A DNA stretch of 45,744 nt from a virus. The stretch covers positions 1-45,744 of the IMG/VR virus record IMGVR_UViG_3300017716_002598. One strand, written 5' to 3'. Position 1 is the stretch's first letter. Every line of letters begins with the position of its first letter. The notes beneath the pieces were generated by a model that saw nothing but the letters and a program-made list of their open reading frames with translations, was not told the origin of the DNA and did not search any database. A program made the position numbers and the translations under genes. This document shows, piece after piece, positions 937 through 32,244 of this stretch.

Positions 937-1181
937 TGTGGGGTAACTTGTGGGGCGAGGGGTCTGGGGCGGGTCCGGTTTCCTTTTGGAAACAACGCCC
1001 AAGCCCCCGAGATTTGGCTCCGCGGGTAGGGGCCGCATTGGTATCCCAGCCGGTCCCGTTTACCCCCGTTCAATCCCGCCCCGCGGGCTTTACAGGGGCC
1101 TCGGCCTCGGCTTAAGCCCCCATGTTACCCCACACGCTCCCGCTCAATACCGTGCGCGCCTGTGGGGTAGATTGTGGGGCG
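937..1181. other. attP region: arm-type repeats flanking a tRNA-3-prime-like core
   Basis: The tandem TGTGGGGTA-N3-TGTGGGGCG occurs at 937-957 and again at 1161-1181. An inverted copy, TACCCCACA, lies at 1126-1134. Between them, 1068-1088 (GTTCAATCCCGCCCCGCGGGC) looks like a T-loop, T-stem 3-prime half and acceptor 3-prime strand. Confidence 0.65.
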
Positions 1182-1184
1182 CCT

Positions 1185-2366
1185 ATGGCCCGAGCCATCA
1201 ATCGGCTGACCGCCAGGACGGTCGCGGCCATGACCCGGCCGGGCCGTCATGCGGACGGCGGCGGGCTCTATCTCATAGTCGACAAGGTGCCGGCCAACGC
1301 GGACGACAAGACCGCTCCGGCAAAGCGATGGGCGCTCCTCGTATCCGTCCGGGGAAAGCGGCGCGAGATCGGCCTGGGGGGCGTGACCTCGACCAACGGG
1401 CTGGCGGAGGCCCGAAAGAACGCCGCCGAGGCCGTCCGCGCGATTGAGCGGGGCGACGACCCGACCCGGCCCAAGGTGGCCGCCCCCGCCTTCCGTATTG
1501 CGGCCGAGCAGGTGATCAAGGACCTGGCCCCCGGCTGGCGCGGCGCGAAGACCGAGGACGGCTGGCGGCGGAACCTCCTAACCCATGCGGCGGATATCGG
1601 ATCCGTGCCGGTCGATCTGATCACGACCGACGACGTGCTTTCCGTTGTTCGCCCCCTTTGGACCGAGAAGCCGGAGAGCGGCGGGAAGCTGCGCGCCCGG
1701 ATCGAGGTTGTCCTCGACGCCGCCAAGGCGCGGGGCTGGCGGGAAGGGGAGAACCCGGCGCGGTGGCGGGGGCATCTCGACCGACTCCTCCCCAAGCCGA
1801 GGAAGCTGGTCCGGGGCCATCACAAGGCGCTGCCCTACGCCAAACTCCCCGCGTTCATGGCGGCCCTTGCCGAACAGACGGCCAGTTCCGCCCGGGCGCT
1901 CGAGTGGACGATCCTGACCGCCTCCCGAGAGGATATGACCCTCAACGCCCGCTGGGGGGAGGTCGAGGGCGATATCTGGACGATCCCCGGCTCTCGCATG
2001 AAGATGGCCCAAGACCTGCGCGTCCCCCTGCCGGCGGCGGCCCTGGCGGTGTTGGCCGCGGTCAAGATCGGCGAGCCCCGGCCGGAGGCGCTGATATTCC
2101 CCGGCAAGAAGAAGGACCGGCCAATGTCGAACGCGACGATGGACGCCCTTCTCGACCGCATGGGCGTCCCCGTCACGGTCCACGGCTTCCGCTCAACATT
2201 CCGCGACTGGGCCGGGGATATGACCGAACACCCGCGCGAGGTCGCCGAGGCGGCCCTGGCCCACGCCGTAGGGAACGCGGTCGAGCGATCCTATCGCCGG
2301 GGGGATGCGCTGGAGAAGCGCCGGGCGCTCATGGCGGACTGGGCCGCCTATTGCCGCCCCGCATAA
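1185..2366 (+). CDS. int: Tyrosine integrase (P4-like family)
   Basis: The C-terminal catalytic region HGFRSTFRDWAGD...LAHAVGNAVERSYRRGD carries the H-x-x-R and Y signatures. The N-terminus (GGGLYLIV) is typical of this family. ATG 1185 is preferred over the longer track ORF start at 1122. Confidence 0.9.
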   Translation: MARAINRLTARTVAAMTRPGRHADGGGLYLIVDKVPANADDKTAPAKRWALLVSVRGKRREIGLGGVTSTNGLAEARKNAAEAVRAIERGDDPTRPKVAAPAFRIAAEQVIKDLAPGWRGAKTEDGWRRNLLTHAADIGSVPVDLITTDDVLSVVRPLWTEKPESGGKLRARIEVVLDAAKARGWREGENPARWRGHLDRLLPKPRKLVRGHHKALPYAKLPAFMAALAEQTASSARALEWTILTASREDMTLNARWGEVEGDIWTIPGSRMKMAQDLRVPLPAAALAVLAAVKIGEPRPEALIFPGKKKDRPMSNATMDALLDRMGVPVTVHGFRSTFRDWAGDMTEHPREVAEAALAHAVGNAVERSYRRGDALEKRRALMADWAAYCRPA

Positions 2367-18446: not shown

Positions 18447-19203
18447 GCGCTCTCCTTGGCCTTCGGCGGGTTGTGCTTGGCGGCTTGGCCCCGGATCAGC
18501 GACAGCACGCCCTTTCCGTCACGGGCAGAGACCGTGTTGGACGCGGGCGCGGGGTTGAGGATCGGCAGGACGGCTTGATCGAGGCGGCGGATCAGGCGGA
18601 CGGACCAGACCCCGAGGGGCGTCATGGTCTGGCGCTTGAAGGCCTCGATCTCGGAGAAGGTGATCGGATTGGCGGCCATGCCGACCTGCCGGGTGCCGGC
18701 AAGGTCAACGAAGGCCTGCCAGACCGGCCCGAGGGGCTCGGGGAAGTCCGGCAGGTCCCGGCGGTTCGCGTAAACGGCCTCGGCGAAAGCGATCAGGCGC
18801 TCGGCGAGGCCTTCATGAAATTTGCCCGGTCTTCGATGAAGGCGCGGGCCTGGGCCGTGATCCACGGGAACCGTGCATAGAGCGCCCGGGCCTCGGCCTC
18901 CGTGCAATCCGGGGTCTTGCCGTCGATCTTGATGCCGTCCCACGCCACGGTGGCGCGGGCCAGATATTCGAGCTCGTTGGCGCGGGCCAGTTCCGCCGTC
19001 ACCCGCATCTGGCCTTGGTTCTTGAGGTAGCGGTTGGTCTGGCGCGTCGAGATCAGCGTCAGGGCGTCGCTATCGGCCCCCAGGAGGGTGATGGTGATCG
19101 GCTTGCCGCCGTCTTGCAGGAGGGGGGCACCGTCCGGGCCGCGCAGTTCAAGCTGCGCGCCCTGGTTGGCAACGTCGGCGGTGTCGAGGGTCGAGAGGTC
19201 CAT
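18443..19203 (-). CDS. Tail assembly chaperone frameshift product (gpGT-like, -1 frameshift at 18823..18817)
   Basis: The zero frame reads ...GCA AAT TTC ATG... After a -1 slip the frame reads AAA TTT CAT GAA (KFHE). This is the frame of track ORF 18443..18943, whose stop overlaps the tape measure start. Confidence 0.7.
18793..19203 (-). CDS. Tail assembly chaperone (gpG-like)
   Basis: Lies between the major tail and tape measure genes. It ends 24 nt after a slippery heptamer, and the -1 frame is open across that point. Confidence 0.8.
   Translation of the reverse strand: MDLSTLDTADVANQGAQLELRGPDGAPLLQDGGKPITITLLGADSDALTLISTRQTNRYLKNQGQMRVTAELARANELEYLARATVAWDGIKIDGKTPDCTEAEARALYARFPWITAQARAFIEDRANFMKASPSA
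18817..18823 (-). promoter_or_regulatory. Slippery heptamer A_AAT_TTC for -1 programmed ribosomal frameshifting
   Basis: A canonical X_XXY_YYZ heptamer in the gpG zero frame, verified by counting codons back from the TGA at 18795..18793. Confidence 0.7.
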
Positions 19204-19215
19204 ACGGGGTGTCCT

Positions 19216-19244
19216 TGGAAAAAGGACGGCGGGTGCGACCCGCC
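19216..19244 (-). terminator. Intrinsic terminator / attenuator downstream of the major tail gene
   Basis: Minus strand: GGCGGGT-cgc-ACCCGCC (19244..19228) followed by GTCCTTTTTCC. It lies in the 82-nt gap before the chaperone gene. Confidence 0.7.
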
Positions 19245-19285
19245 GCTAAGGTTGGGGGGAGGCTGGTTCTTGCGGCCGGGCGGTC

Positions 19286-19774
19286 TTAGGTGCCGCCGGT
19301 GACCGCGGTCGAGGGAACCTCGTCAATCTCTGTGTCGATTGCACAGACGATGTTCCGCATATTGACGGCCGAGGACGAGCCCCGGTTGACCTTGGCGGAG
19401 AGGACGCGAGCGCCGAAATAGACGACCGAGTCGGTGTCGTTGGAATCGGCACCGTCCGCGGCCACGACCTTGATCGGATAGAGGCGGGCCGTTGCGGCCG
19501 CAGCGATGGCGGCGATCTGGCCGGCGTCGAGGGGGTCGTCCGCGCAGCCAAAGGTGATGTTGCCCGGGTTGACCGCGCCCTTGCGCTGGCGGGTTCGGCC
19601 GTCAGCCAGAGGCGTGTGGGAGATCACCGCGCCGTCGTCGCCGAACTCGGAGACGGTTTCGACGCCACCGATCTCGGTCCAGGTCAGGGAGGCATAGCCG
19701 GACGGGGTGCGGTTGGTTTCGGTGACGGCCGCCGCGATATAGACGCGGGTGCCGATGCCATCGGAGATTGCCAT
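19286..19774 (-). CDS. Major tail protein (TP901-1 / RcGTA g9-like)
   Basis: Called from its size (162 aa), from its position before the chaperone pair, and from the sequence pattern (TRVYIA...YASLTWTEIGGVETVSEFG). Confidence 0.75.
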   Translation of the reverse strand: MAISDGIGTRVYIAAAVTETNRTPSGYASLTWTEIGGVETVSEFGDDGAVISHTPLADGRTRQRKGAVNPGNITFGCADDPLDAGQIAAIAAAATARLYPIKVVAADGADSNDTDSVVYFGARVLSAKVNRGSSSAVNMRNIVCAIDTEIDEVPSTAVTGGT

Positions 19775-19811
19775 TGGAGGGGCCTTTCAGTTTTGAGGGG
19801 GACCGGACGTG

Positions 19812-19834
19812 AAAAAGGCCCGCCGGAGCGAGCC
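19812..19834 (-). terminator. Hairpin plus U-run upstream of the major tail gene
   Basis: Minus strand: GGCUCGC-uccg-GCGGGCC (one G-U pair) followed by TTTTTC. It lies in the 106-nt gap 19775-19880. Confidence 0.5.
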
Positions 19835-19880
19835 TGTTTTGGCCGTGCCGTGTGGCCGGTCCAATGCTGAGGCTGGGCCC

Positions 19881-20279
19881 TTAGCGGGCGGTCCAGCCTA
19901 TCGTGACGGGGACGCGCGTGTCGGCGTCGTCGAGCAGGGGCGAGGCGGCGTAGGGCTGGCGCGAAATCTTGACGCCGCCGGTCAGGCCCAGGCCCTTGGG
20001 GAAGTGGTCGATCACGTCCGAGGCCAGCCGCATCAGGGCGGGGATGCCTTGGCCCTTCGGCCCAACGACCGTGACTTGCAGGAGGCCTTGATCCATCCGG
20101 CCGGCGGCGAGGCCTTCCCATGCCGGGCGGTTGTAGAAGATCGACACCTCCAGATATTTCCCATCGGCCGGCGGCGTAAACGCGACGTCTGGATAGGCAA
20201 TCGGGAGGGCCGGGGAGCCGACCGAGAGCGTGGCGGCGCGGGCCAGAAGGCCGGAGGCAATCAAGGCGGGGTCGGACAT
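19881..20279 (-). CDS. Tail completion / tail terminator-like protein (DUF3168-like)
   Basis: Lies between the HK97 gp10-like gene and the major tail gene. ATG 20279 is chosen because the longer track ORF overlaps the upstream gene. Confidence 0.6.
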   Translation of the reverse strand: MSDPALIASGLLARAATLSVGSPALPIAYPDVAFTPPADGKYLEVSIFYNRPAWEGLAAGRMDQGLLQVTVVGPKGQGIPALMRLASDVIDHFPKGLGLTGGVKISRQPYAASPLLDDADTRVPVTIGWTAR

Positions 20280-20284
20280 AGGGC

Positions 20285-20728
20285 TTAACCTCCCGCCCGG
20301 GCCTGCGCCTCGGTTGCGACTTCGGAGACGATGCGCTGCCACTGTTGGGCGGCGAGGGCGACGAAGCGATCCCCGGGCTGGCCGCGCGACCCATACTCCC
20401 GGGGCCTGGCGTAGTTGGCCGTGTAAGCGACCGTGATCGTGTTGGTGATATCCGCCCCGTTGATCACAAGATTGATCTGGCCCGCGTCATAGGCGAAGGC
20501 GGCGACCCCGTCCGGCTTGGCTTGCAAGGGGGGCAGGATCCCGGTCGTCGTGGCGACCAGCGAGGCGCGGAGAAAGCCGGTGTCGACCCTCATATTCCCG
20601 CCGGCCGCCCGAGGGACCTGCATCGTCTCGACAACCCGCTGGGCGCTCTCGCGATAGACCGCGTCCGTCCGGGCTTTGGTTTCGCGGACCCAGTCGCTGA
20701 CCTGGGCGGCGAATGAGCCTTGGGCCAT
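20285..20728 (-). CDS. Head-tail joining protein, HK97 gp10 family
   Basis: The sequence DTGFLRASL...YANYARPREYG is the typical gp10-family signature. Confidence 0.7.
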   Translation of the reverse strand: MAQGSFAAQVSDWVRETKARTDAVYRESAQRVVETMQVPRAAGGNMRVDTGFLRASLVATTTGILPPLQAKPDGVAAFAYDAGQINLVINGADITNTITVAYTANYARPREYGSRGQPGDRFVALAAQQWQRIVSEVATEAQARAGG

Positions 20729-20910
20729 TAGAGCGGCTCGAGCCCGTCCGATTGCGAACCGAGGACCGCCAAGGAGAGGACGTCCGGCTCGATGAGGTCC
20801 TTGTCGTCGCCTGTGTAGGCGGCGAGAAGCTCCTCGGCCCGGGCCACCTTGTCGCCGGGTGCCGCCGCCTCAACCGCTTCGAGGATTTCAGCCAGCGTCA
20901 TATTCGCCAT
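20728..20910 (-). CDS. Small acidic protein (60 aa) overlapping the 3-prime end of the MuF-fusion gene
   Basis: MANMTLAEILEAVEAAAPGDKVARAEELLAAYTGDDKDLIEPDVLSLAVLGSQSDGLEPL. It overlaps the upstream gene by 23 nt and the downstream start by TAATG. Confidence 0.55.
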   Translation of the reverse strand: MANMTLAEILEAVEAAAPGDKVARAEELLAAYTGDDKDLIEPDVLSLAVLGSQSDGLEPL

Positions 20911-22834
20911 CGTATTTCCTGAAGATCGCCAGAAGCGCCGGGTGGATCCGGCCGTGTTCGGCCAAGGGGCGCGACATATAGAGCGAGAAGGCCTCGGCGA
21001 CATATTCCTTGTCGTTCGCGCTGCTGTAGTGCGAGAGCGCGTATTGCCAGCCCGTCTCCCGGGGCTTGAAGGCCGCCAGGAAGCGGTCGATCTCCGGCCC
21101 GATCCGCTTGTCGACCAGATGCAGGACGTGCCCGAACTCATGATAGGTCGTCACCGACCGGGTGCGGTCCCCGGATAGGGACGAGATCGACCAACCGTAG
21201 CGGCCGGCCTCGACGGCGTTCATCGCCGCTTCGGCGTCCGGGGCGGTCTTTCCGGGCGACTTCTTGCGCTGCTCAAACGCCAGCCGAGCTTCTTTCGTAT
21301 ATCGAGGCGAGCCCAGTTCGCCCATCGCGGTCTGGCGGTCGGCGTCTTTCTGGTCGCCGAACTTCGTCGGCATGTGGAACGCGGCGTAGGTGTTGCCGTC
21401 GCGGAGGCGTCCCGAGAACAGGGCGGCGTTCGCGTTCCTGGGGGCGCTAACCCGGAACGGTGCGCCGCTGCGGGTGATCGGACCCATGAAGTCCAGCGGC
21501 GCGAGGCCGAACCGCTCGACAACCTCATGGGCCGCGTTGAGCGAGGGAGCGATGTTGCGGATCGCCATCCCGGTCAGGTCGGCGTTCAGAGCGATGCCGG
21601 CGGCTCGGATATAGTCTCGGGCTCCGGCGGCGTCCTTGGGAAGCCTGGCGTCTCGGTAGCCAACCCGGCGGGGCGGGGCTGGCGCAGGTTCCGGGGCAGG
21701 GGGCACGGGGGCGACCGGAGCGGGAACCTGGGCCGGCGGCGGTGCTGGGGCGACCGGCGGGGCGGGAGGAGCCCGCACGACCGGCGGGACGGCCGGGGCG
21801 AGGTTGGAGAGGAAGTCAATGCGATACTCAACGTCGCAGCGGCAGTTGATGATCTCGCCCGCCCCGGCTCCGAGGCTGGTGTCGAGGGGGTAGAGCATCC
21901 GGGCACCCGAGGGGGTGACGAACGGCTCGCGGAAGGCGACCGAGTCCCCGTTGAGCGCGCGATGGGTATGCCGGACCCGGAAGTCGCCCGCCGAGCGCCA
22001 GACCTTGCGGACGGCGCTCTCGGCGACCTGACCGGACTCGATTGCCTGGCGGTAGGCCTCATGCTTGGCGGCTTGGAGCGCGGACAATGCCTCGACCCGG
22101 CCGATGGTATCGCCCCGCAGTTTGAGGAGGCGGGATTCATAGGCCAGGATCGCCTTGCGGATTGTCGCGGCCGGCGGCGCGGTCTCCTCGCGGATTGCCC
22201 GCTCGATGGTCCGGTCGAAACGCTTGTCCCGCTGTTTGCGCCCCAGATAGGCGCGCAGGGCGGTCGGGTCGCCGGAGGTCAACTCCTCCCGGGCGTTCCT
22301 GACATAGCCCTCCTGGGGGCCAGAGAGGCCGAGGATGCCCCCTTCGCGCTTGCCGGTCGCCCGGTTGAGCGTCCCGACGATGCGGAGCGCCGCGGTCCGG
22401 GGGTTGACCCCTGCCTCGAGGCTATCGCGGAGAGAGGCGCGGGCGGCGGCGCGCTGGTCTTCCGTGATGCGGGTGATCAGCTGCGAGGAATGGTCCCGGA
22501 GCCATTGTTCCGCCGCCGGGTTCCGGCCGGAGAAGCGCACGACGAGGGCCGAGCCGTCCGGCTTGCGCTTGGGGAAATCTTCAATCGCCGCCTTGCCGCC
22601 CTCGGTCTGGGCGTTGCGGATCGCGTCGAGCATGTCCTCGTAGGCTGCCGCGTCGATATTGAGGGCGGCCAGGGCCTCCTCGATCTGTCCCGCCTCAATC
22701 GCCGCCGTGACCCTCTGTAGCGCGGCCCCGGCCCGGATGCTTTCGACGGCCGCAAGGAACGCCGCCGCGACCTCCCGGCCGTAGCGTTGCGCGAGCGCGT
22801 CGAATAGCGCGCCCTTCGCCCGGGTGTCTGTCAT
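20888..22834 (-). CDS. MuF / SPP1 gp7-like head morphogenesis domain, Pro-rich linker and C-terminal HExxH metallopeptidase-like domain
   Basis: The MuF signature is VWRSAGDFRVRHTHRALNGDSV...INCRCD (about residues 278-334). A P/A linker spans about residues 346-389 (21668-21799). HEFGH is encoded at 21142..21128, with a downstream EYVAEAF. Confidence 0.75.
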   Translation of the reverse strand: MTDTRAKGALFDALAQRYGREVAAAFLAAVESIRAGAALQRVTAAIEAGQIEEALAALNIDAAAYEDMLDAIRNAQTEGGKAAIEDFPKRKPDGSALVVRFSGRNPAAEQWLRDHSSQLITRITEDQRAAARASLRDSLEAGVNPRTAALRIVGTLNRATGKREGGILGLSGPQEGYVRNAREELTSGDPTALRAYLGRKQRDKRFDRTIERAIREETAPPAATIRKAILAYESRLLKLRGDTIGRVEALSALQAAKHEAYRQAIESGQVAESAVRKVWRSAGDFRVRHTHRALNGDSVAFREPFVTPSGARMLYPLDTSLGAGAGEIINCRCDVEYRIDFLSNLAPAVPPVVRAPPAPPVAPAPPPAQVPAPVAPVPPAPEPAPAPPRRVGYRDARLPKDAAGARDYIRAAGIALNADLTGMAIRNIAPSLNAAHEVVERFGLAPLDFMGPITRSGAPFRVSAPRNANAALFSGRLRDGNTYAAFHMPTKFGDQKDADRQTAMGELGSPRYTKEARLAFEQRKKSPGKTAPDAEAAMNAVEAGRYGWSISSLSGDRTRSVTTYHEFGHVLHLVDKRIGPEIDRFLAAFKPRETGWQYALSHYSSANDKEYVAEAFSLYMSRPLAEHGRIHPALLAIFRKYDGEYDAG

Positions 22835-22837
22835 GGG

Positions 22838-23053
22838 TTAGCGGCCGAGGATCGCCAAGGCGGACCGGACGACGGCTCCGTTCAGGTCGAGGCAGATGTC
22901 GAGCATATCGTGCGCCTCCTGCCGTATCTCTTGAGCCGCGGCCTCGTCGCCCCGCAGGAGCGCCGCCTGATAGGCATACAGCTTCGCGCTGACGTCTTTC
23001 CACGCCGCTGCCGCCAAGGCTGCGGGCTGGGGGTGGTCGTCTATCGGCGGCAC
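22838..23053 (-). CDS. Hypothetical protein (71 aa)
   Basis: Compact ORF within the head-completion block. No similarity recognised. Confidence 0.55.
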   Translation of the reverse strand: MPPIDDHPQPAALAAAAWKDVSAKLYAYQAALLRGDEAAAQEIRQEAHDMLDICLDLNGAVVRSALAILGR

Positions 23054-23403
23054 TGGACTTCAAACATGACCGGGCTCCCGGCGGGGCTCAACTGCTTGAG
23101 CGGAGGGACGATCCTATAGACCGTTCCGTCCGCCTCAACCAACTTGTCATCCAGCGCCGGGGTGATGGTGAGGGAGCCAACGGCGAGGAGCGCCTTCTTG
23201 TCGGTCGCCAGGACCCTCGTCCCGTCGATCTCTCTGGCCGTGTAATCCATGACCGCGAAGAAAGCGGCGTAATCGACCTCGGCCCCCGGCGTCGGGTCGT
23301 AGTCCGGCCCGGTCGGGGCCACGGTGCGGCGGATCGCGCCAAGCTGGCCGAACTCGGCGATCAGGTCGTCGGCGACCGCGGCCATTTCGGCGTAGAAGGT
23401 CAC
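23041..23403 (-). CDS. Head-tail adaptor / head closure candidate (120 aa)
   Basis: Called from position and size. It is ATGA-coupled to the gp6-like connector gene. Confidence 0.5.
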   Translation of the reverse strand: MTFYAEMAAVADDLIAEFGQLGAIRRTVAPTGPDYDPTPGAEVDYAAFFAVMDYTAREIDGTRVLATDKKALLAVGSLTITPALDDKLVEADGTVYRIVPPLKQLSPAGSPVMFEVQCRR

Positions 23404-23900
23404 GACCGGGAAATCCGAATGCCGTTGCCGGCCGTCAGGAACGGGGCGAGCAGCTGGTCGATGGCGTTGAAGGTCCGGCTTTGCCGGCTGTGGTCCTGGT
23501 ATTCGATCTCGATCTCGCCGACCCGCTTGCGCTTCACGTTCTGGGTCTGGTCCGGGATCAGGTCGGTATCCGCCCGGTTGGCCGCCTCGATGTTGGCCCG
23601 TTTGACCGCCTCGGGGACTTCGTCGCTCGGGTAGTAGGAGGCGATCTCCCCGTAGCCCGGGCCGTCCTTCATCGGGACGTCGTAGCGGGGCCAGTCGAGG
23701 GCTTGGGTGGTCGAGGTCCGGGTGCCGGCCCAGCGGTCGCGATAGACCGTCACCAGATAGTCCGCGCCCTTGCGGAGCCGCTGCTCGATCACCGTGTCCG
23801 CCGGGTAGCTGATCCCCCGGGCGTCGCAGTAGGCCTTGAACTCCGCGAGGGTGGCGTAGGAATCCGCGTTGGCGGCCCCCGGGGTGACGATCAGGGGCAT
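23400..23900 (-). CDS. Head-tail connector protein (gp6-like)
   Basis: The N-terminus ANADSYATLAEFKAYCDARG is characteristic of gp6-like connectors. Confidence 0.65.
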   Translation of the reverse strand: MPLIVTPGAANADSYATLAEFKAYCDARGISYPADTVIEQRLRKGADYLVTVYRDRWAGTRTSTTQALDWPRYDVPMKDGPGYGEIASYYPSDEVPEAVKRANIEAANRADTDLIPDQTQNVKRKRVGEIEIEYQDHSRQSRTFNAIDQLLAPFLTAGNGIRISRS

Positions 23901-23904
23901 GGGG

Positions 23905-24318
23905 TCAGGCTCCGGGGCAAGGCGCGCGGCGGGCCAGTTCGGCGGCGATTGCCGCGACGGCTTGGCGCTTGTTCAGGATCGGGGCCGGGCTCAGGGCCGA
24001 GGCGAGGGCGCGAAGGCTTGTTCCCCGGCCCGTCTGCGACCACGGCAGGGATTGCCAGTCGTCGGGGATCGGAACGGCGGCCGGATCCTCGGCCTGTCCC
24101 GTAATCAACCCGGTCGTGGCGGGCTTGCGGTCGAGTTCGGGCCGCCCGTAGTGGTTCACCGTCACGCCCCGGGCGAGATAGGCGTCTTCGATCTCCGGCC
24201 AGTCACCGACGAGGACGACGCGCGAGACGCCGGCCTCGGGTTCGGTGAAAAAGCGGGGGTTACGCTGGGCCTGGCCGCCGTTGAGGGCTTGCGCCTCCCG
24301 GGCATAGACCAGTTCCAT
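23905..24318 (-). CDS. Hypothetical head protein (137 aa) with a C-terminal HeH/SAP-like motif
   Basis: The C-terminus is SLRALASALSPAPILNKRQAVAAIAAEL. The gene lies after the coat gene. Confidence 0.5.
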   Translation of the reverse strand: MELVYAREAQALNGGQAQRNPRFFTEPEAGVSRVVLVGDWPEIEDAYLARGVTVNHYGRPELDRKPATTGLITGQAEDPAAVPIPDDWQSLPWSQTGRGTSLRALASALSPAPILNKRQAVAAIAAELARRAPCPGA

Positions 24319-24320
24319 GA

Positions 24321-24491
24321 TCAGGCTTTGGCCTTCGCAGCAGGGGCGGCCTTCTCGGCGGCCGGGGCCTTGGCCGGGGCCTCGCTGTAGAGGCGGTGGA
24401 CCTTCGCGTCAAAGTCCGTCTCGTTGATCACCACATATCCGCCGGGGACCTTGTCGTCGGCGACGCGGACGGTCGGGCAGGCATCGGACAT
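24321..24491 (-). CDS. Small protein (56 aa) with an Ala/Lys/Pro-rich tail
   Basis: ATG 24491 is preceded by GGAGGA. The longer track ORF start is unsupported. Confidence 0.55.
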   Translation of the reverse strand: MSDACPTVRVADDKVPGGYVVINETDFDAKVHRLYSEAPAKAPAAEKAAPAAKAKA

Positions 24492-24579
24492 GGCGTCCTC
24501 CAAGGGTGTTTCGGGGGGGGAGAAAGGTGGGGCCGAGCGGTTAAGCCCGGCCCCGGTCTTCACGCTTACAAGCCGGAGG

Positions 24580-25888: not shown

Positions 25889-26677
25889 TTAGTCGACGAT
25901 TGAGACGTCGGAGGCGGTCGCCGCCTTCATCCGGTCGCTTGGGGGGAGAGCGTCAAACTCGGCGCGCGTGATCGTGCGCTTGCCGCCGCCGCCACCGTTG
26001 TTCTGGGCCCCGCCGCCGGGACGAATGTCGCCCTTGAGGATCGAGTCGCGCGTGGGGTGAGCGTCAACCAGGAGCTCCAGCGCCTCATCGAACCCAGCGA
26101 CCTCGCCGGGCTTGGCGCGGCTGTAGATTTTGTTCTTGTCCGGCCCGTAGGCCACGACCTGGCCGTCCTCGATCTTGAAGTTCCCGCCGAACTTGGCTTG
26201 CAGGAAGTCGGCGGGGATCGCGACCTTCTCGGCGATGAACTTGGACCGGGCGAAGGAGCCGCCGATCTTCTCGCCATACAGCTGGCCCTCGAAGTCGTCG
26301 CCGCGCTTGTTGGCGGCGGCCAGCTTCTCCTCGTAGCCCTTGGCGATCTCGGCCTTGACCTTCTCGACCTCGCCCGCGTCGATCAGTTTCTTTTGGTCGA
26401 GGGAGCCGACCGTTTCCAGCGCCTTGATGGCGGCGGCCGGGTCGGTGATTCCCTCGAATGCCTTGAGGGCCCGCTCGGCGGCTTCCTTGCCCTCGCGGTG
26501 GCTTTTGGCCTCGCCGTTGAGCCGGGTGATGGTGCCGATAGTGCCGGGCGCGTCGAAGGCCACGTCCTTGCCGGTGTCGTCCGTGAAGACCGGCTTGCCG
26601 TCCTGGACGGCCGCGTAGGTGACGCCGTCGATCTCGATGGTCTTGAGCTTCATGGTGGGGTGGGCTTTCTCCGGCAT
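25889..26677 (-). CDS. Scaffolding protein candidate (start 26677 or 26653)
   Basis: The protein is charged, helical and K/E/A-rich, and lies directly upstream of the coat gene. Confidence 0.6.
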   Translation of the reverse strand: MPEKAHPTMKLKTIEIDGVTYAAVQDGKPVFTDDTGKDVAFDAPGTIGTITRLNGEAKSHREGKEAAERALKAFEGITDPAAAIKALETVGSLDQKKLIDAGEVEKVKAEIAKGYEEKLAAANKRGDDFEGQLYGEKIGGSFARSKFIAEKVAIPADFLQAKFGGNFKIEDGQVVAYGPDKNKIYSRAKPGEVAGFDEALELLVDAHPTRDSILKGDIRPGGGAQNNGGGGGKRTITRAEFDALPPSDRMKAATASDVSIVD

Positions 26678-26742: not shown

Positions 26743-27246
26743 TTAGGACGCGAGCCAGTCCGGCGTCGGGCGTCCGAGGAGGTCGGCGGTCCAGCCGCTC
26801 ATTGAGCGGGCGCGGTCGCCGATGGCGGGGAGGGCTTGCCGCCAGCCGGCGCGGAGGATTTCGGCGGACCGCCAAGGCCAGGGCTCGGTGATGTGCCGGG
26901 CCTGCTCATCCATCGGGACGCCGCAGAGGACGGCGCGGTCATATCCGAGATCGACCAGCGCGACCTTGAGGGCGAACAGGCCGGAGGAGCCGGAGCGATC
27001 CTGGCCGGGGAAGGCCCAGCCGTGGGTGAAGACTTGGGGAGCAGGGGGGTAGCCTTTGGATGCCCGGCGCTCGGCCCATCCGGGCCAGAGATCGGGGTGA
27101 AGGGTTGCCGCCGCGTCTATGGGGCCCGGCCAGTCGGCGGCGATATCGTTGCAGGCGACGATCCCGTCCGCCTCGGTTAGCGCCAGTGCGGCCTCGACGT
27201 CATCCCAGACAGTCGTGGCACCGCCCAGCACAAGGGCGAGGGTCAC
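26743..27246 (-). CDS. Uncharacterised Rossmann-like protein (167 aa) inserted between portal and scaffold
   Basis: The GTG start overlaps the portal stop. The pattern LVLGGA...DGIVACND...GSSGLFALKVALVDLGYDRAVLCGVPMD loosely recalls DUF115/MptE-like folds. This is a weak, by-eye call. Confidence 0.5.
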   Translation of the reverse strand: MTLALVLGGATTVWDDVEAALALTEADGIVACNDIAADWPGPIDAAATLHPDLWPGWAERRASKGYPPAPQVFTHGWAFPGQDRSGSSGLFALKVALVDLGYDRAVLCGVPMDEQARHITEPWPWRSAEILRAGWRQALPAIGDRARSMSGWTADLLGRPTPDWLAS

Positions 27247-28697: not shown

Positions 28698-30269
28698 TTA
28701 CAGGCGCAGGGGGGCGACGGTGGCAGGCGCGGGGCCCAGCGCCAGTTCGTTGAAGGCGTCGGCCGCGGCGTCGACCCGGTCGTCGTGGGCCCCGGCCGGG
28801 AAGCCGCAAAGCTCGTCGACGAAGGTCTCGATCCATGCGTCCCGGTCGGGATCGCCGGTTGCCAGGATATAGACGTTCCCGGCCTCGGCTTGGGTCGCCA
28901 AGGCCAGCGCCCGGGTTTCCTTGGAGCCGGTCGGGCGCTCGACCTTGACCGCGTAGCCGGGGAGCATCTTGACGAGGGTCTGGACGTAGCCCTTGCCGGC
29001 CGCGCCGGGGTCTTGGGGGAGGCGGATGATCACGTCCGGGGTATCGGCCGCCGCGGTCAGTTTCAGTTGGGCTTCGAGGTTGGCCGGCGACCACTGGCCC
29101 GCCCGGCAGTCCGTGAAATAGAAGGTTGCGGCCTCGCCGTTGCCGACCTTGGTGCAACGGACGCCCGCGCTCGGGTCGCCCCCGCCTTCGGTCGCCCCGA
29201 TATCCCAAGCCCGGACCGTGCGGCGTGTCCCGGCGGGCAGGGTGTTGGCGATCTTGAACCACGACCGCTGGAATAGGCCGCCATCGCGCGGCGCGGGCCG
29301 CTGCTGATACTGCCCCGCCCAGGCATAGGCGCCCTTGCCCCTCTTGAGCGTCTCGACCTCGGCGGCCGGGAAGCGTTCGGGGAACAGGAGCTCGCCCTCG
29401 ATCCGCCGGGGATCCTCAAAGAACAGGGCCCCGTTGACGTAGGTGCGGCAGGGGCCGGCGGTTTGTTTGCCGTCCGCCCCGATCCGCGCCGCCTCGTATT
29501 CCATCGGCAGGTTGAGGTGGACGAACCCGATCTCGAGGCCCATCGCCACGGCCGCCACGTCCTTCGCGTGAAGGCGCTGCATGATGATCACGATGGCGCT
29601 GGTCTGCACGTCGTTGAGGCGGTCGGTGATTCCCTCGCGGAAAATCCGGGTCGCCGTCTCGCGCTCGACCTCCGACTCCGCCGTCTCGGTAGAGTGCGGG
29701 TCGTCGATCTTGACCCTATCGGCCCGGCCCCCGGTCATGGAGCTGAACGGGCGGGCCTCCGAGAAGCCGTTGGCCGTGTTCTCGAATTTGCCCTTGGCGT
29801 TCTGGTCGCCGCGGAGGGCCAGCGGCCAGAGGGCTTGAAACTTCTCGCTCTCGACCAGACGCCGGAGTTTGAGGTTATCGCGAAGCACGTTCGCTTGGCT
29901 GTAGCTGGTCGCCAGGACTTGCAGATGGGCCGCGCCTTGCGGTCCCCACTCCCAAGCGGTCCAGAAGACCAGCAGGAGAGACTTCATCATCCCCGGGGGG
30001 ACGGTGATCAGGAGCCGCTTGATCTCCCCGCGCGAAACCGCCTCGAGGTGGGCGCACATCGCCCGGAGCGCCCAGCCCCCTACGAACGGTCGCGCCGGCT
30101 CCAAGGTGTGCCAGAACTCGGCGATGAACCCGTAGAGCGGCCGGCAACCGGAGACGATTTCCGACCGCTGCGTCTCAACCCGGTGGCGATCCGCCCGGGC
30201 CTGCTTCTCCCGCAAGGCGGCGAGGAGCCGCTCCCGGTCAGTCCTCGTCAGCGGGCGCGTCATCCGCAT
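28698..30269 (-). CDS. terL: Terminase large subunit
   Basis: The ATPase region reads KSLLLVFWTAWEW...VKIDDPH. The nuclease C-terminus reads AWDIGATEGGGDPSA...GAHDDRVDAAADAF. Confidence 0.9.
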   Translation of the reverse strand: MRMTRPLTRTDRERLLAALREKQARADRHRVETQRSEIVSGCRPLYGFIAEFWHTLEPARPFVGGWALRAMCAHLEAVSRGEIKRLLITVPPGMMKSLLLVFWTAWEWGPQGAAHLQVLATSYSQANVLRDNLKLRRLVESEKFQALWPLALRGDQNAKGKFENTANGFSEARPFSSMTGGRADRVKIDDPHSTETAESEVERETATRIFREGITDRLNDVQTSAIVIIMQRLHAKDVAAVAMGLEIGFVHLNLPMEYEAARIGADGKQTAGPCRTYVNGALFFEDPRRIEGELLFPERFPAAEVETLKRGKGAYAWAGQYQQRPAPRDGGLFQRSWFKIANTLPAGTRRTVRAWDIGATEGGGDPSAGVRCTKVGNGEAATFYFTDCRAGQWSPANLEAQLKLTAAADTPDVIIRLPQDPGAAGKGYVQTLVKMLPGYAVKVERPTGSKETRALALATQAEAGNVYILATGDPDRDAWIETFVDELCGFPAGAHDDRVDAAADAFNELALGPAPATVAPLRL

Positions 30270-30711
30270 CCCCGCTCAAGGTGGCGATCTCCGCCGCGAG
30301 CTCTTCGTCCGAGAGGTGCGAGAACGTATGCGCCACGCGTTGAACCGGGGCCGTCTTCGGGGCCATCCGAGCCGCGGCCCACTTCAAGGCGTCGAGGTAA
30401 ACGCGCGCGCCGGCCGGGTCGATCTTGTGACCGTTGACCGATTGGCCGAGCGCCGCAGCCTTGGTGACGGTCAGCCCGTCCTCTTGCAGCGTCTCGGCCC
30501 GTTCCTCGCGCGCGCTCGCGTATTGTTGGCGGCGGCCCTCGTCTTGATTGATCCAGGTGTGCGCCGACGACGGGTCGATCCCAAGTTTGCGACAGGCGGC
30601 ACGAAGCGACTTCCCGGAGCCGATGATCGCCATCATGGGGGCGAGGTCTTCGGCGGTCGGGCGGCGCTTGCCTTCCTCCGCGGCGTCCTGGACTTCGTTG
30701 TTCTCGCTCAT
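30238..30711 (-). CDS. terS: Terminase small subunit
   Basis: An HTH region (SLRAACRKLGIDPSSAHTWI...YASAREERAE) lies directly upstream of terL and overlaps it. Confidence 0.75.
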   Translation of the reverse strand: MSENNEVQDAAEEGKRRPTAEDLAPMMAIIGSGKSLRAACRKLGIDPSSAHTWINQDEGRRQQYASAREERAETLQEDGLTVTKAAALGQSVNGHKIDPAGARVYLDALKWAAARMAPKTAPVQRVAHTFSHLSDEELAAEIATLSGDADDAPADED

Positions 30712-31625
30712 GCGACCTTGACGAGCCTCATTCCGTATTCGTTGGGGGCGGGGTCGAGGTTGAGGTCGGGGCGGCGGATCAGGCGTTGGCGCTTGAACCG
30801 GGAATAGTCGACGTGATGGTGAACCCGGCGATAGCGGAAGATCACCTCCGCGACGTCGGGATGAACGGCCGCCAGCATCTTCGACTTAGCGACCGTGCCC
30901 GTGTCCGCGTATTTCTCGCCGGCCCGGACCGTCCCCTCGGCGTGGTAGAACTCCGCAGTGTTCCCCCCCGGTAGCTTCTGGGTCTCCATCTTCTCTTGCA
31001 GGAAGGCGTTGAACTGGATCGTGCACCAGCCGGCCTTGAGCATATCGAGCGAGAGGATCGTGTCCTCGTTGTATCGGCCGCGCCAGCGGAAGGGGGCGTC
31101 GTTGCGGATCAGGTTGCAGGAATAGATGCGGGTGTTCGCGACGAAGGGCGGGCGCTTACATTTTCGCTCGGCGAACATGAAATAGTTGGGGCCGGCCATC
31201 GCGACGTTGAGATAGCGAAGGGTGAAGTCCTCCATCGCCGCCCAATAGCCGGGGCTAGTCGTCCTGACCTTGAGGTTATGGTTCCAGCGGAAGAACCAGA
31301 TGATGTTGTCATCCATCACCCAATGCCAGGCGTGGCCCGCGGCGATGGAGTGTTCCCAAGCGAAGTTGCGGGCCGGGCCGGGGCCGGTGCTTTTCGAGAG
31401 GCCGAGGTCGTCGCAGAGCTCGTAGCGATCCTTGAAGGAGAGATCGAGCGGGAGGACGGTCGCGAGGAGGTCCATTGACCGGATCGCGGTCTCGTATGCC
31501 TCGACCTCCTGGGGCTCAACGACAACGAAGTGGGGGACGCCCATCCGGGTTAGGGCCTTGCTCGTCACCATATAGGCGGAGCGGCCCTTCGAGACGATGT
31601 AGAGCGGGAAGCGGGGGTTATTCAT
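30708..31625 (-). CDS. GT-A-fold nucleotide-sugar transferase-like protein (TAGT-like?)
   Basis: The N-terminus is PLYIVSKGRS. The sequence GPGPARNFAWEHSIAAGHAWHWVMDDN matches the GT-A pattern ARN...A.G....hhhDD(D/N). It is coupled to ParB (8-nt overlap) and to terS (ATGA). Confidence 0.5.
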   Translation of the reverse strand: MNNPRFPLYIVSKGRSAYMVTSKALTRMGVPHFVVVEPQEVEAYETAIRSMDLLATVLPLDLSFKDRYELCDDLGLSKSTGPGPARNFAWEHSIAAGHAWHWVMDDNIIWFFRWNHNLKVRTTSPGYWAAMEDFTLRYLNVAMAGPNYFMFAERKCKRPPFVANTRIYSCNLIRNDAPFRWRGRYNEDTILSLDMLKAGWCTIQFNAFLQEKMETQKLPGGNTAEFYHAEGTVRAGEKYADTGTVAKSKMLAAVHPDVAEVIFRYRRVHHHVDYSRFKRQRLIRRPDLNLDPAPNEYGMRLVKVA

Positions 31626-32244
31626 ACCGCTTGTCGGCGTATCGCTCGATCTGGATTTCGGGATACCAGACGAAGCGGGTCTTCGACGTGATCGCGAACT
31701 CGGTCATGGTCGTGAAGGCGTCGACCGCGGCTTGGTCGGGAAAGTGAACGACGAGCGACCGGAACGCCTTTTTGTCGGTCTGGGAGAACTCCGGCATCCC
31801 TTGCCATTCGGCTTCGGCGTCGTTCTCGCCTTCCTCGCGCGGGAGGAGGAGGTTCTGAATCTCCCCCGCGTCGAAGCCGATCAGGTCCAGGTCATACCCG
31901 CCCTCGGCGAGCGCCTCGATTTCGGCACGGAGGGCGTCGTCATCCCATCCGGCGTTGAGGGCCAGCTTGTTGTCCGCGATCACATAGGCCCGGCGCTGGG
32001 CTTCGGAGAGGTGGTCGAGGACGAGGACCGGGACGGTTGCGAGCCCGAGGGATTGAGCGGCGAGAACCCGTCCGTGCCCGGCGATGATCCCGCCTTCGGC
32101 GTCGACGAGGACCGGGTTGGTAAACCCGAACTCGGTGATTGAGGCGGCGATCTGCGCGACCTGGGCCTCGGAGTGCGTCCGGGAGTTCCGGGCATAGGGC
32201 GTCAGGTCGGCAATCGGCCGCTGCTCGAGGTCTTTCGGGGTCAT
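31618..32244 (-). CDS. ParB/Srx-like N-terminal domain protein lacking the usual methyltransferase domain
   Basis: ParB-type motifs are present (LTPYARNSRTHSEAQVAQIAASI...IIAGHGRVLAA). The EWQGMPEF...VVHF......F linker is normally followed by an N6/N4 DNA methylase in phage ParB-methyltransferase fusions. Confidence 0.7.
   Translation of the reverse strand: MTPKDLEQRPIADLTPYARNSRTHSEAQVAQIAASITEFGFTNPVLVDAEGGIIAGHGRVLAAQSLGLATVPVLVLDHLSEAQRRAYVIADNKLALNAGWDDDALRAEIEALAEGGYDLDLIGFDAGEIQNLLLPREEGENDAEAEWQGMPEFSQTDKKAFRSLVVHFPDQAAVDAFTTMTEFAITSKTRFVWYPEIQIERYADKRYE

Follow-up and report, generated by a model that had tools for sequence, protein, structure and literature searches.

A phage MuF head protein fused to a predicted lethal-factor-like metallopeptidase and paired with a small acidic candidate partner

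A stretch of 45,744 nucleotides of viral DNA, positions 1 to 45,744 of IMG/VR virus record IMGVR_UViG_3300017716_002598 (hereafter the window), carries on its minus strand a gene whose product joins a MuF head-morphogenesis domain, through a Pro/Ala-rich linker, to a predicted zinc metallopeptidase resembling anthrax lethal factor (LF) and the Pro-Pro endopeptidases (PPEPs). A small acidic open reading frame (ORF) overlaps the 3' end of this gene (Table 1). We favour, with a probability of about 0.5, the reading that the large protein is a protease effector which is packaged in the capsid, ejected, and accompanied by a bound partner; we infer packaging, ejection, activity, partner binding and target. 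In this reading the MuF domain would anchor the protein to the portal within the procapsid, the Pro/Ala linker would tether a catalytically competent LF/PPEP-like zinc endopeptidase, and the protein would exit the capsid with the DNA upon infection. The peptidase might then cut one or more host proteins at the onset of infection, in the service of takeover, anti-defence or an influence on the lysis-lysogeny choice. The translationally coupled acidic protein of ~55 residues would bind the basic peptidase domain 1:1 and most likely hold it quiet or folded in the producer cell, much as a detachable pro-domain would, the two being fused in one clade.

The N-terminal half of the 648-residue product was matched by the PHROG family phrog_3517, annotated as head morphogenesis (E = 1.7e-99, residues 11-344), and by Pfam PF04233 (Phage_Mu_F) with 35.5 bits against a cutoff of 29.6 (E = 1.9e-8). 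It carries the MuF signature, FRVRHTHRALNGDSV...EIINCRC, at residues ~290-336. The linker that follows, APAVPPVVRAPPAPPVAPAPPPAQVPAPVAPVPPAPEPAPAPPR, contains 21 Pro, 12 Ala and 7 Val (Pro plus Ala, 75%), including seven Pro-Pro dipeptides; among relatives, linkers range from 26 to 58 residues and from Pro/Ala-rich to acidic or basic in composition. Within the C-terminal domain, an HEFGH motif is followed, 41 residues past its second His, by the start of EYVAEAF. The residues H565, E566, G568, H569, Y603, E610 and E614 do not vary in either alignment of relatives, one of 65 close and one of 47 distant sequences (112 in total, from 107 distinct proteins). From what is known of the M34 enzymes LF and PPEP-1, we take Tyr603 to be the catalytic tyrosine and Glu610 the third zinc ligand.

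Structure prediction and remote-homology searches gave hints of an LF/PPEP-like fold. An AlphaFold2 (AF2) model of the domain, built from a 40-sequence alignment, reached a predicted local distance difference test score (pLDDT) of 95.3 and a predicted template modelling score (pTM) of 0.93, and was used in place of a discarded model from 3 sequences with a pLDDT of 33. In domain numbering, the model shows a four-stranded sheet, then a helix (170-189) that contains HEFGH, and a helix (223-236) that contains E225 and E229. Anthrax LF occupied ranks 1-24 when this model was compared with the PDB by Foldseek, with a probability of up to 0.93 and a best E value of 7.5e-3, though the chains superpose poorly overall. 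The best match in BFVD was a 611-residue viral protein (E = 3.7e-6, template modelling (TM) score 0.64), and the next were proteins annotated as 'phage head morphogenesis'. In a single-sequence search of PDB sequences, the Pro-Pro endopeptidase 6fpc (E = 0.11-0.14) and LF 2l0r (E = 0.2-0.9) were the top two matches. HEFGH pairs with the HEFGH of LF, and HYSSANDKEYVAEAF pairs with SYGRTNEAEFFAEAF in LF and YVSAYPTEYFAEA in PPEP-2. Furthermore, the Pfam family ATLF was detected in 23 of the 65 close relatives (best E = 5.4e-6) and in 28 of the 47 distant ones (best E = 3.8e-15). We conclude from these comparisons that the C-terminal domain is probably a divergent LF/PPEP-like gluzincin, itself below the Pfam threshold and tied to ATLF via its relatives, so that its predicted M34/ATLF membership is to be read at the level of a superfamily or a divergent subfamily.

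These results bear out much of the original prediction, which was made by a model from the letters alone. Its coordinates were all correct, the MuF domain it claimed for the N-terminal half was recovered by both profile collections, the Pro/Ala linker of about 44 residues was found as described on translation, and the HEFGH and EYVAEAF segments, which it had called gluzincin-like, proved invariant and could be aligned with LF and PPEP-2. The prediction also depended on HEFGH being part of a zincin-like helix, and the motif does lie in a predicted helix of the model.

Purifying selection acts on both folded halves of the protein, and strongly so on the active site. The ratio of nonsynonymous to synonymous substitution rates (dN/dS), estimated against relatives ~85% identical in DNA (L011 and L078; loci are given by L numbers and relatives by P numbers throughout), was 0.07 for the MuF domain, 0.26-0.48 for the linker and 0.06 for the peptidase domain. 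For the small ORF, comparison with L009, L010, L011 and L002 gave 0.11-0.28; a comparison with L078 was out of register and was discarded. Orthologs of the fusion protein in L009, L011 and L078 are likewise 648 residues long, with an amino-acid identity of 95-99%. The linker is the hot spot of divergence, with 50% amino-acid identity to L011 as against 95-96% for both flanking domains. The peptidase is therefore constrained as strongly as the structural domain, which would argue for a working enzyme.

The small acidic ORF is a genuine gene whose occurrence goes with that of the peptidase domain, and comparison of loci supports its candidacy as the partner of that domain. Its product has an isoelectric point (pI) of 4.05 and a net charge of -10.5. 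The small ORF shares 23 nt with the large ORF, its homologs begin at an 'MT' equivalent to ATG 20901, and its TAA stop runs into the following gene's ATG (TAATG). A hidden Markov model (HMM) of the small protein, iterated across 77 loci taken from genomes and IMG/VR, detected a homolog immediately 3' of the peptidase domain at 46 of the 47 loci that carry a close peptidase. Both genes share a strand in every case, and L019 is the only locus without a copy. In the unfused loci its start lies -22 to 0 nt from the stop of the large ORF in all but one case (L041, +39). Because two different relative frames occur across loci, initiation of the small ORF is separate and coupled. Six loci, all from one clade (L038, L044, L045, L047, L048 and L049), have the small protein fused in frame to the C-terminus of the peptidase, with a spacer of ~25 residues. 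An overlapping downstream small ORF is present in both of the earliest homologs retrieved, P0001/L002 and P0002/L001, and the small protein of L001 is 47% identical to the window copy, its peptidase only 37-39%. Wherever the pair lies, next to the portal or among the neck genes, the small ORF keeps its position after the peptidase.

The small proteins form a family of their own. When their alignment was searched against 5.8 billion proteins, 38 were found, all 51-64 residues long and none with a Pfam domain; for two of these, six contigs were sampled, and a MuF protein precedes in 6 of 6. Searches of Pfam, NCBIfam and PHROG with the small ORF returned no family, and the small-protein HMM detected no copy beside the more distant peptidase relatives (E ~1e-22 and weaker). 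One Asp, in a [DE]-D-K motif, is nearly invariant. The median pI of the small proteins is 4.05 (charge -8.5), compared with 9.3 for the peptidase domains, and the two are thus complementary in charge. Together, the obligate pairing of the small gene with the peptidase, this complementarity and the coupled starts would support a role as partner. No promoter-like site was found between 19000 and 24500, hence none that would belong to the small ORF alone, and this result, with the tight coupling of the genes, places the pair in the late operon.

Two other accounts of the small ORF were rejected. A product of frameshift fusion does not fit with two relative frames, an ATG of its own preceded by an AGGA element, and starts past the stop codon in some loci; a connector protein would not be expected to move along with the peptidase when that lies beside the portal, nor to be fused to it, as the ORF is at six loci. 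The original prediction was right about the extent, overlap and acidity of this ORF, and had left its role between an immunity protein, a chaperone-like partner and a connector. Among these options the partner gains from the 46 of 47 loci and the six fusions, the connector falls, and immunity is weakened by the fusions and by the lack of a separate promoter.

An exhaustive HMM search with the peptidase domain retrieved 124 clusters at E<=1e-3, of which 63 reached <=1e-10 and 31 reached <=1e-30. A word-indexed protein search had given only 2 relatives of the peptidase, which misleadingly suggested rarity. Most relatives are 520-640 residues long with the peptidase domain at the C-terminus. Phage_Mu_F was present in 50 of the 65 close and 22 of the 47 distant relatives, that is in 72 of 112, the remainder being mostly fragments; it was also found in nine of ten further locus proteins, which a jackhmmer search seeded with the window MuF domain had mostly missed. 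The predicted peptidase family thus comprises ~120 protein clusters from viral contigs and prophages, and nearly all of them are attached to MuF. Pfam scans of the 112 relatives retrieved by HMMER showed only phage-type contexts (MuF, Phage_min_cap2, intein, ADP-ribosyltransferase (ART), Zeta and others), and no Rhs, CdiA or type VI secretion system architecture. By tblastn against 50,697 deposited phage genomes, neither the window peptidase domain nor a Gilliamella-type relative had a match; 160 deposited phage genomes matched the MuF half only.

Similarity to the window protein is uncoupled between the two domains. The peptidase of L013 is 47% identical, the closest non-sibling among loci with a full-length ORF, and its MuF domain gave no BLAST match; conversely, L063 and L050 have MuF domains 43% and 37% identical to that of the window and peptidases only 31-32% identical. 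The cassette of peptidase plus partner has therefore moved between MuF backbones.

Several relatives have more elaborate architectures. P0045 (1688 residues) and P0060 (1321 residues) contain three peptidase stretches each, and P0097 and P0116 reach 5045 and 7260 residues. In P0109 an ADP-ribosyltransferase accompanies the LF-like domain, a Zeta toxin domain occurs in one relative, and an intein (Pfam Intein_splicing / Hint_2) lies inside the MuF domain of several, for example at residues 254-559 of P0024 and 210-509 of P0052. Such multi-peptidase, ART, Zeta and intein-bearing relatives make the domain part of the network of polyvalent proteins described by Iyer 2017 (PMC5512222). A cultured member of the Rhodobacteraceae, Aliisedimentitalea scapharcae KCTC 42119 (NZ_CP123584.1; L003 4972..6932), has a prophage with a 595-residue MuF-peptidase, whose 58-residue partner is joined to it by an ATGA overlap. 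More distant peptidase relatives are present in Gilliamella species.

Table 1. Positions of the fusion gene, its parts, the small acidic gene and other features of the window
Feature	Coordinates	Strand	Basis
MuF-linker-peptidase fusion, whole gene, 648 aa, ATG start	20888..22834	-	ORF list; stop codon 20888..20890
MuF (SPP1 gp7 / Mu F) head-morphogenesis domain, residues 1-345	21800..22834	-	PHROG and Pfam matches
Pro/Ala-rich flexible linker, residues 346-389, 44 aa	21668..21799	-	Translation and composition
Predicted lethal-factor/PPEP-like (M34-like) zinc-metallopeptidase domain, residues 390-648	20891..21667	-	AF2, Foldseek, Pfam ATLF in relatives
HEFGH, predicted zinc-binding/catalytic motif, His565 Glu566 His569	21128..21142	-	Translation; invariance; lethal factor alignment; predicted helix
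Y603-x6-E610-xxx-E614 motif (YSSANDKEYVAE), predicted catalytic Tyr and third zinc ligand	20993..21028	-	Invariance, alignments
Small acidic gene, candidate partner, MANMTL...LEPL, 60 aa from ATG 20910	20728..20910	-	ORF list, locus comparison
AGGA Shine-Dalgarno-like element, 6 nt 5' of the small-ORF ATG, within the end of the large ORF	20917..20920	-	Sequence
Neck1/tail-completion gene, downstream neighbour	20285..20728	-	phrog_169, E 4.6e-19
Hc1 head-closure gene, upstream	23041..23403	-	phrog_161, E 7.5e-25
71-aa ORF between Hc1 and MuF	22838..23053	-	phrog_37208 (function unassigned in PHROG), E 3e-6
Tyrosine-integrase-like gene	1122..2366	+	phrog_1, E 3.9e-29
Terminator-like GC-rich hairpin with T-run	19226..19246	-	
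Scaffold-like gene	25889..26677	-	phrog_784 (function unassigned in PHROG); weak scaffolding-family match
167-aa ORF directly after the portal gene	26743..27246	-	
Small terminase gene	30238..30711	-	
Glucosyltransferase-like gene and ParB-like gene (two genes)	30708..32244	-	phrog_842, E 7.6e-38; phrog_15396, E 1e-56

By PHROG annotation, the minus-strand genes run in the order small terminase, TerL, portal, 167-aa ORF, scaffold-like gene, major capsid, ORFs of 80 and 137 aa, Ad1 adaptor, Hc1 head closure, 71-aa ORF, MuF fusion, 60-aa ORF, Neck1/tail completion, tail terminator, major tail and tape measure. The fusion gene is thus not adjacent to the portal gene; it lies between Hc1 and Neck1, six genes from the portal. 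Among relatives with enough context, most show MuF directly after the portal, in the canonical order portal, MuF-peptidase, small ORF, scaffold or protease, and capsid (e.g., L004, L005, L013, L016, L051, L064-L066 and L080-L083). The neck arrangement (Hc1, MuF-peptidase, small ORF, Neck1, terminator and major tail) is found in the window, L002, L009-L012, L014, L019, L050, L078 and L079, and by ORF layout in L003, where small ORFs lie upstream and the major tail gene lies ~1.2 kb downstream. The unusual placement after the head-completion genes, to which the original prediction had drawn attention, is accordingly real; it is a trait of a minority clade and does not define the family.

Several other features of the window were recorded. 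The 71-aa ORF overlaps Hc1 and stops 3 nt 5' of the MuF start, and the same order occurs in L009 and L011. The 167-aa ORF, which has no PHROG match, occupies the usual MuF slot. The L078 ortholog of the scaffold-like gene has a DUF6651 domain. PHROG annotation recognised no prohead protease in the head module of the window. The terminator-like hairpin lies just past the major tail gene and is the sole one on the gene strand in 19000-24500. The integrase-like gene indicates a temperate siphovirus or a prophage; no tRNA genes were found within the window. The small terminase gene adjoins two genes, one glucosyltransferase-like (matching a family annotated as beta-glucosyl-HMC-alpha-glucosyltransferase) and one for a ParB-like nuclease N-domain protein, which may form a DNA-modification or anti-restriction pair.

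Several observations weigh against the reading of a packaged and ejected protease with a bound partner. As a single sequence, the window domain matched ATLF (PF07737) with an E value of 0.055 and 13.6 bits, below the threshold of 27.4. A profile search against PDB sequences was marginal: neurolysin (E = 0.027) aligned over the HExxH helix only, and LF reached E = 0.2. The Foldseek superposition on LF was poor (TM score 0.24, root-mean-square deviation ~18 Å). Given this poor superposition and the weak direct matches, the family-level placement leans mainly on the motifs and on transitive Pfam hits. Furthermore, we found no experimentally studied MuF-protease in the literature, and there are few phages in which MuF proteins are known to be ejected. 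The position in the neck module could hint at a different role in assembly, and if the partner acts as an inhibitor, a fused inhibitor would have to be removed.

A tentative alternative keeps the protease and recasts the small protein as part of it. The pair might be a two-piece latent protease, whose detachable pro-domain is mostly encoded by a separate coupled gene and is fused in one clade. The active site would be masked while the virion is built, possibly by the near-invariant Asp of [DE]-D-K; the pro-domain would be shed on packaging or ejection, and the protease would fire in the next host on a defence or regulatory protein. As an extra step, the peptidase might also free itself from MuF by cutting at the linker.

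A classical MuF polymorphic toxin seems rather unlikely. Here the peptidase would inhibit the growth of non-lysogenic competitors, and the small ORF would encode the immunity protein of prophage carriers. The layout does fit the definition of Jamet 2017 (PMC5576092), with a MuF N-terminus, an enzymatic C-terminus, a small downstream ORF and a temperate phage, and cassettes have been swapped between MuF backbones (L013, L063 and L050). However, the small ORF lies within a late structural operon, coupled on both sides and without a promoter-like site, and at that position it would be silent in a repressed prophage. In-frame fusion in six loci would deliver toxin and antidote together, and the dN/dS of the small ORF carries no sign of diversifying selection. 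The domain subfamily was found on no non-phage toxin scaffold among the 112 scanned relatives, so that this hallmark of polymorphic toxins is lacking.

We are similarly doubtful of a protease that acts on the assembly side or on itself, cutting its own Pro-rich linker or trimming virion proteins, with the small protein as an assembly chaperone. The best PDB sequence match is a Pro-Pro endopeptidase and the window linker offers Pro-Pro dipeptides; the window phage has no recognisable prohead protease, and in its clade the gene sits among neck and connector genes. Autoproteolytic roles for metallopeptidases (MPTases) in packaged polyvalent proteins, e.g., P1 DdrB, have been proposed by Iyer 2017 (PMC5512222). 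On the other hand, the PPEP match is marginal, most relatives occupy the canonical portal-adjacent slot, and many have linkers without Pro-Pro runs, acidic or basic and of only 26-32 residues, so that Pro-Pro self-cleavage cannot be the conserved function. L080-L083 have their own Peptidase_S78 prohead protease directly after the pair, which also led us to reject a role as the head-maturation protease. Finally, it is very improbable that the C-terminal domain is an inactive structural or binding module with a zincin fold and the small ORF another neck protein, as the weak sequence similarity to characterised M34 enzymes and the adjoining neck genes of the window might suggest, given that all metal-binding and catalytic positions are invariant in 112 sequences, that the domain is under strong constraint (dN/dS 0.06), and that in portal-adjacent pairs the small ORF stays behind the peptidase, away from the neck genes.

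If the favoured reading of a capsid-packaged, ejected protease holds, the locus is of interest because enzymes carried in the capsid reach the host ahead of other phage proteins. It offers a clean minimal example, in which an anchor, a linker, a protease and a partner each occur once, and could be used to ask whether MuF-tethered proteases are ejected, what they cut and how they are kept harmless during assembly. Should the target be a defence protein, the locus would add a proteolytic, pre-packaged mode of anti-defence; should it be another protein, the locus would be an ordinary member of a predicted class. That class, capsid-delivered enzymes, was already predicted by comparative genomics between 2012 and 2017, and a dedicated partner has not been described previously. 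New here are a divergent LF-like subfamily, a family of acidic partners that are sometimes fused, a relocated gene position and a culturable representative.

Among known systems, the MuF toxins are the first to compare, and the original prediction's assignment to the class of MuF toxins and polyvalent proteins agrees with the literature (PMC5576092, PMC5512222). Zhang et al. 2012 (PMC3482391) listed MuF, as a phage-capsid system, among the routes by which polymorphic toxins are delivered, and placed an LF-like metallopeptidase with toxins of Photorhabdus virulence cassettes (PVC) and the type II secretion system (T2SS), not with MuF. In the survey of Jamet 2017 (PMC5576092), metallopeptidase domains occurred in 20% of 191 MuF toxins and small downstream ORFs (<150 aa, candidate immunity) in 89%; the toxins were restricted to temperate phages with a bias to Firmicutes, and proteobacterial extensions were mostly 'unknown domain'. 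The same work reports that 85% of phage muf genes lie near the portal or terminase gene, that 1-2 copies of SPP1 gp7 are bound to the portal in each capsid, and that peptidase effectors of low toxicity have been proposed to act at entry; the only MuF effector studied by then was an ADP-ribosyltransferase of Enterococcus faecalis (PMC5576092). Its Ct_MAD domain was built from C-terminal extensions that match the C-terminal region of COG2369 (PMC5576092).

Like those toxins, the window protein has a MuF1 (PF04233) N-terminus and an enzymatic C-terminus on a temperate phage, a small downstream ORF and a history of cassette exchange. COG2369 is presumably Mu gp30-like, in which case Ct_MAD would be without HExxH. 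The comparison with Jamet's metallopeptidase MuF toxins is with metallopeptidases in general. The window protein differs in that its subfamily lies below Pfam thresholds and is unmatched in the deposited phage genomes searched, its gene is not portal-adjacent, and its domain was not found on non-phage toxin scaffolds. Moreover, the small ORF here belongs to a conserved late-operon family, fused in some loci, which would suit immunity less well than a role as partner or pro-domain.

Anthrax LF and PPEP-1/-2 (M34, ATLF) likewise have an HEFGH helix and a helix with Tyr-x6-Glu-xxx-Glu, ~40 residues apart; the LF family is the only fold family retrieved from the PDB, and distant relatives of the window domain pass as ATLF. 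The likeness is remote, with ~17% identity, a poor superposition and a window protein under the gathering cutoff. LF and the PPEPs are secreted and act outside their producer, whereas the window domain is tethered to a phage head protein and would have a dedicated small partner.

In the work of Iyer et al. 2017, MPTases are the main hub and the commonest domain of polyvalent proteins, MuF serves as a delivery anchor and as a hub for the effectors delivered, and 12 MPTase clades are described as not specifically related to previously defined zincin clades (PMC5512222). As in those proteins, a zincin peptidase is here tied to MuF and, in relatives of 1,300 to 7,260 residues with tandem copies, ART or Zeta, to other effectors, and the same functional alternatives, autoprocessing or effector, have been proposed. 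The window protein, with two domains and a single effector, is the simplest architecture of this kind, and its domain links to ATLF. Lastly, SPP1 gp7 and Mu gpF share a homologous N-terminal domain with the window protein, which is presumed to be a portal-associated minor head protein as they are; SPP1 gp7 has no enzymatic extension and its gene directly follows that of the portal, and the window gene differs from it in both respects.

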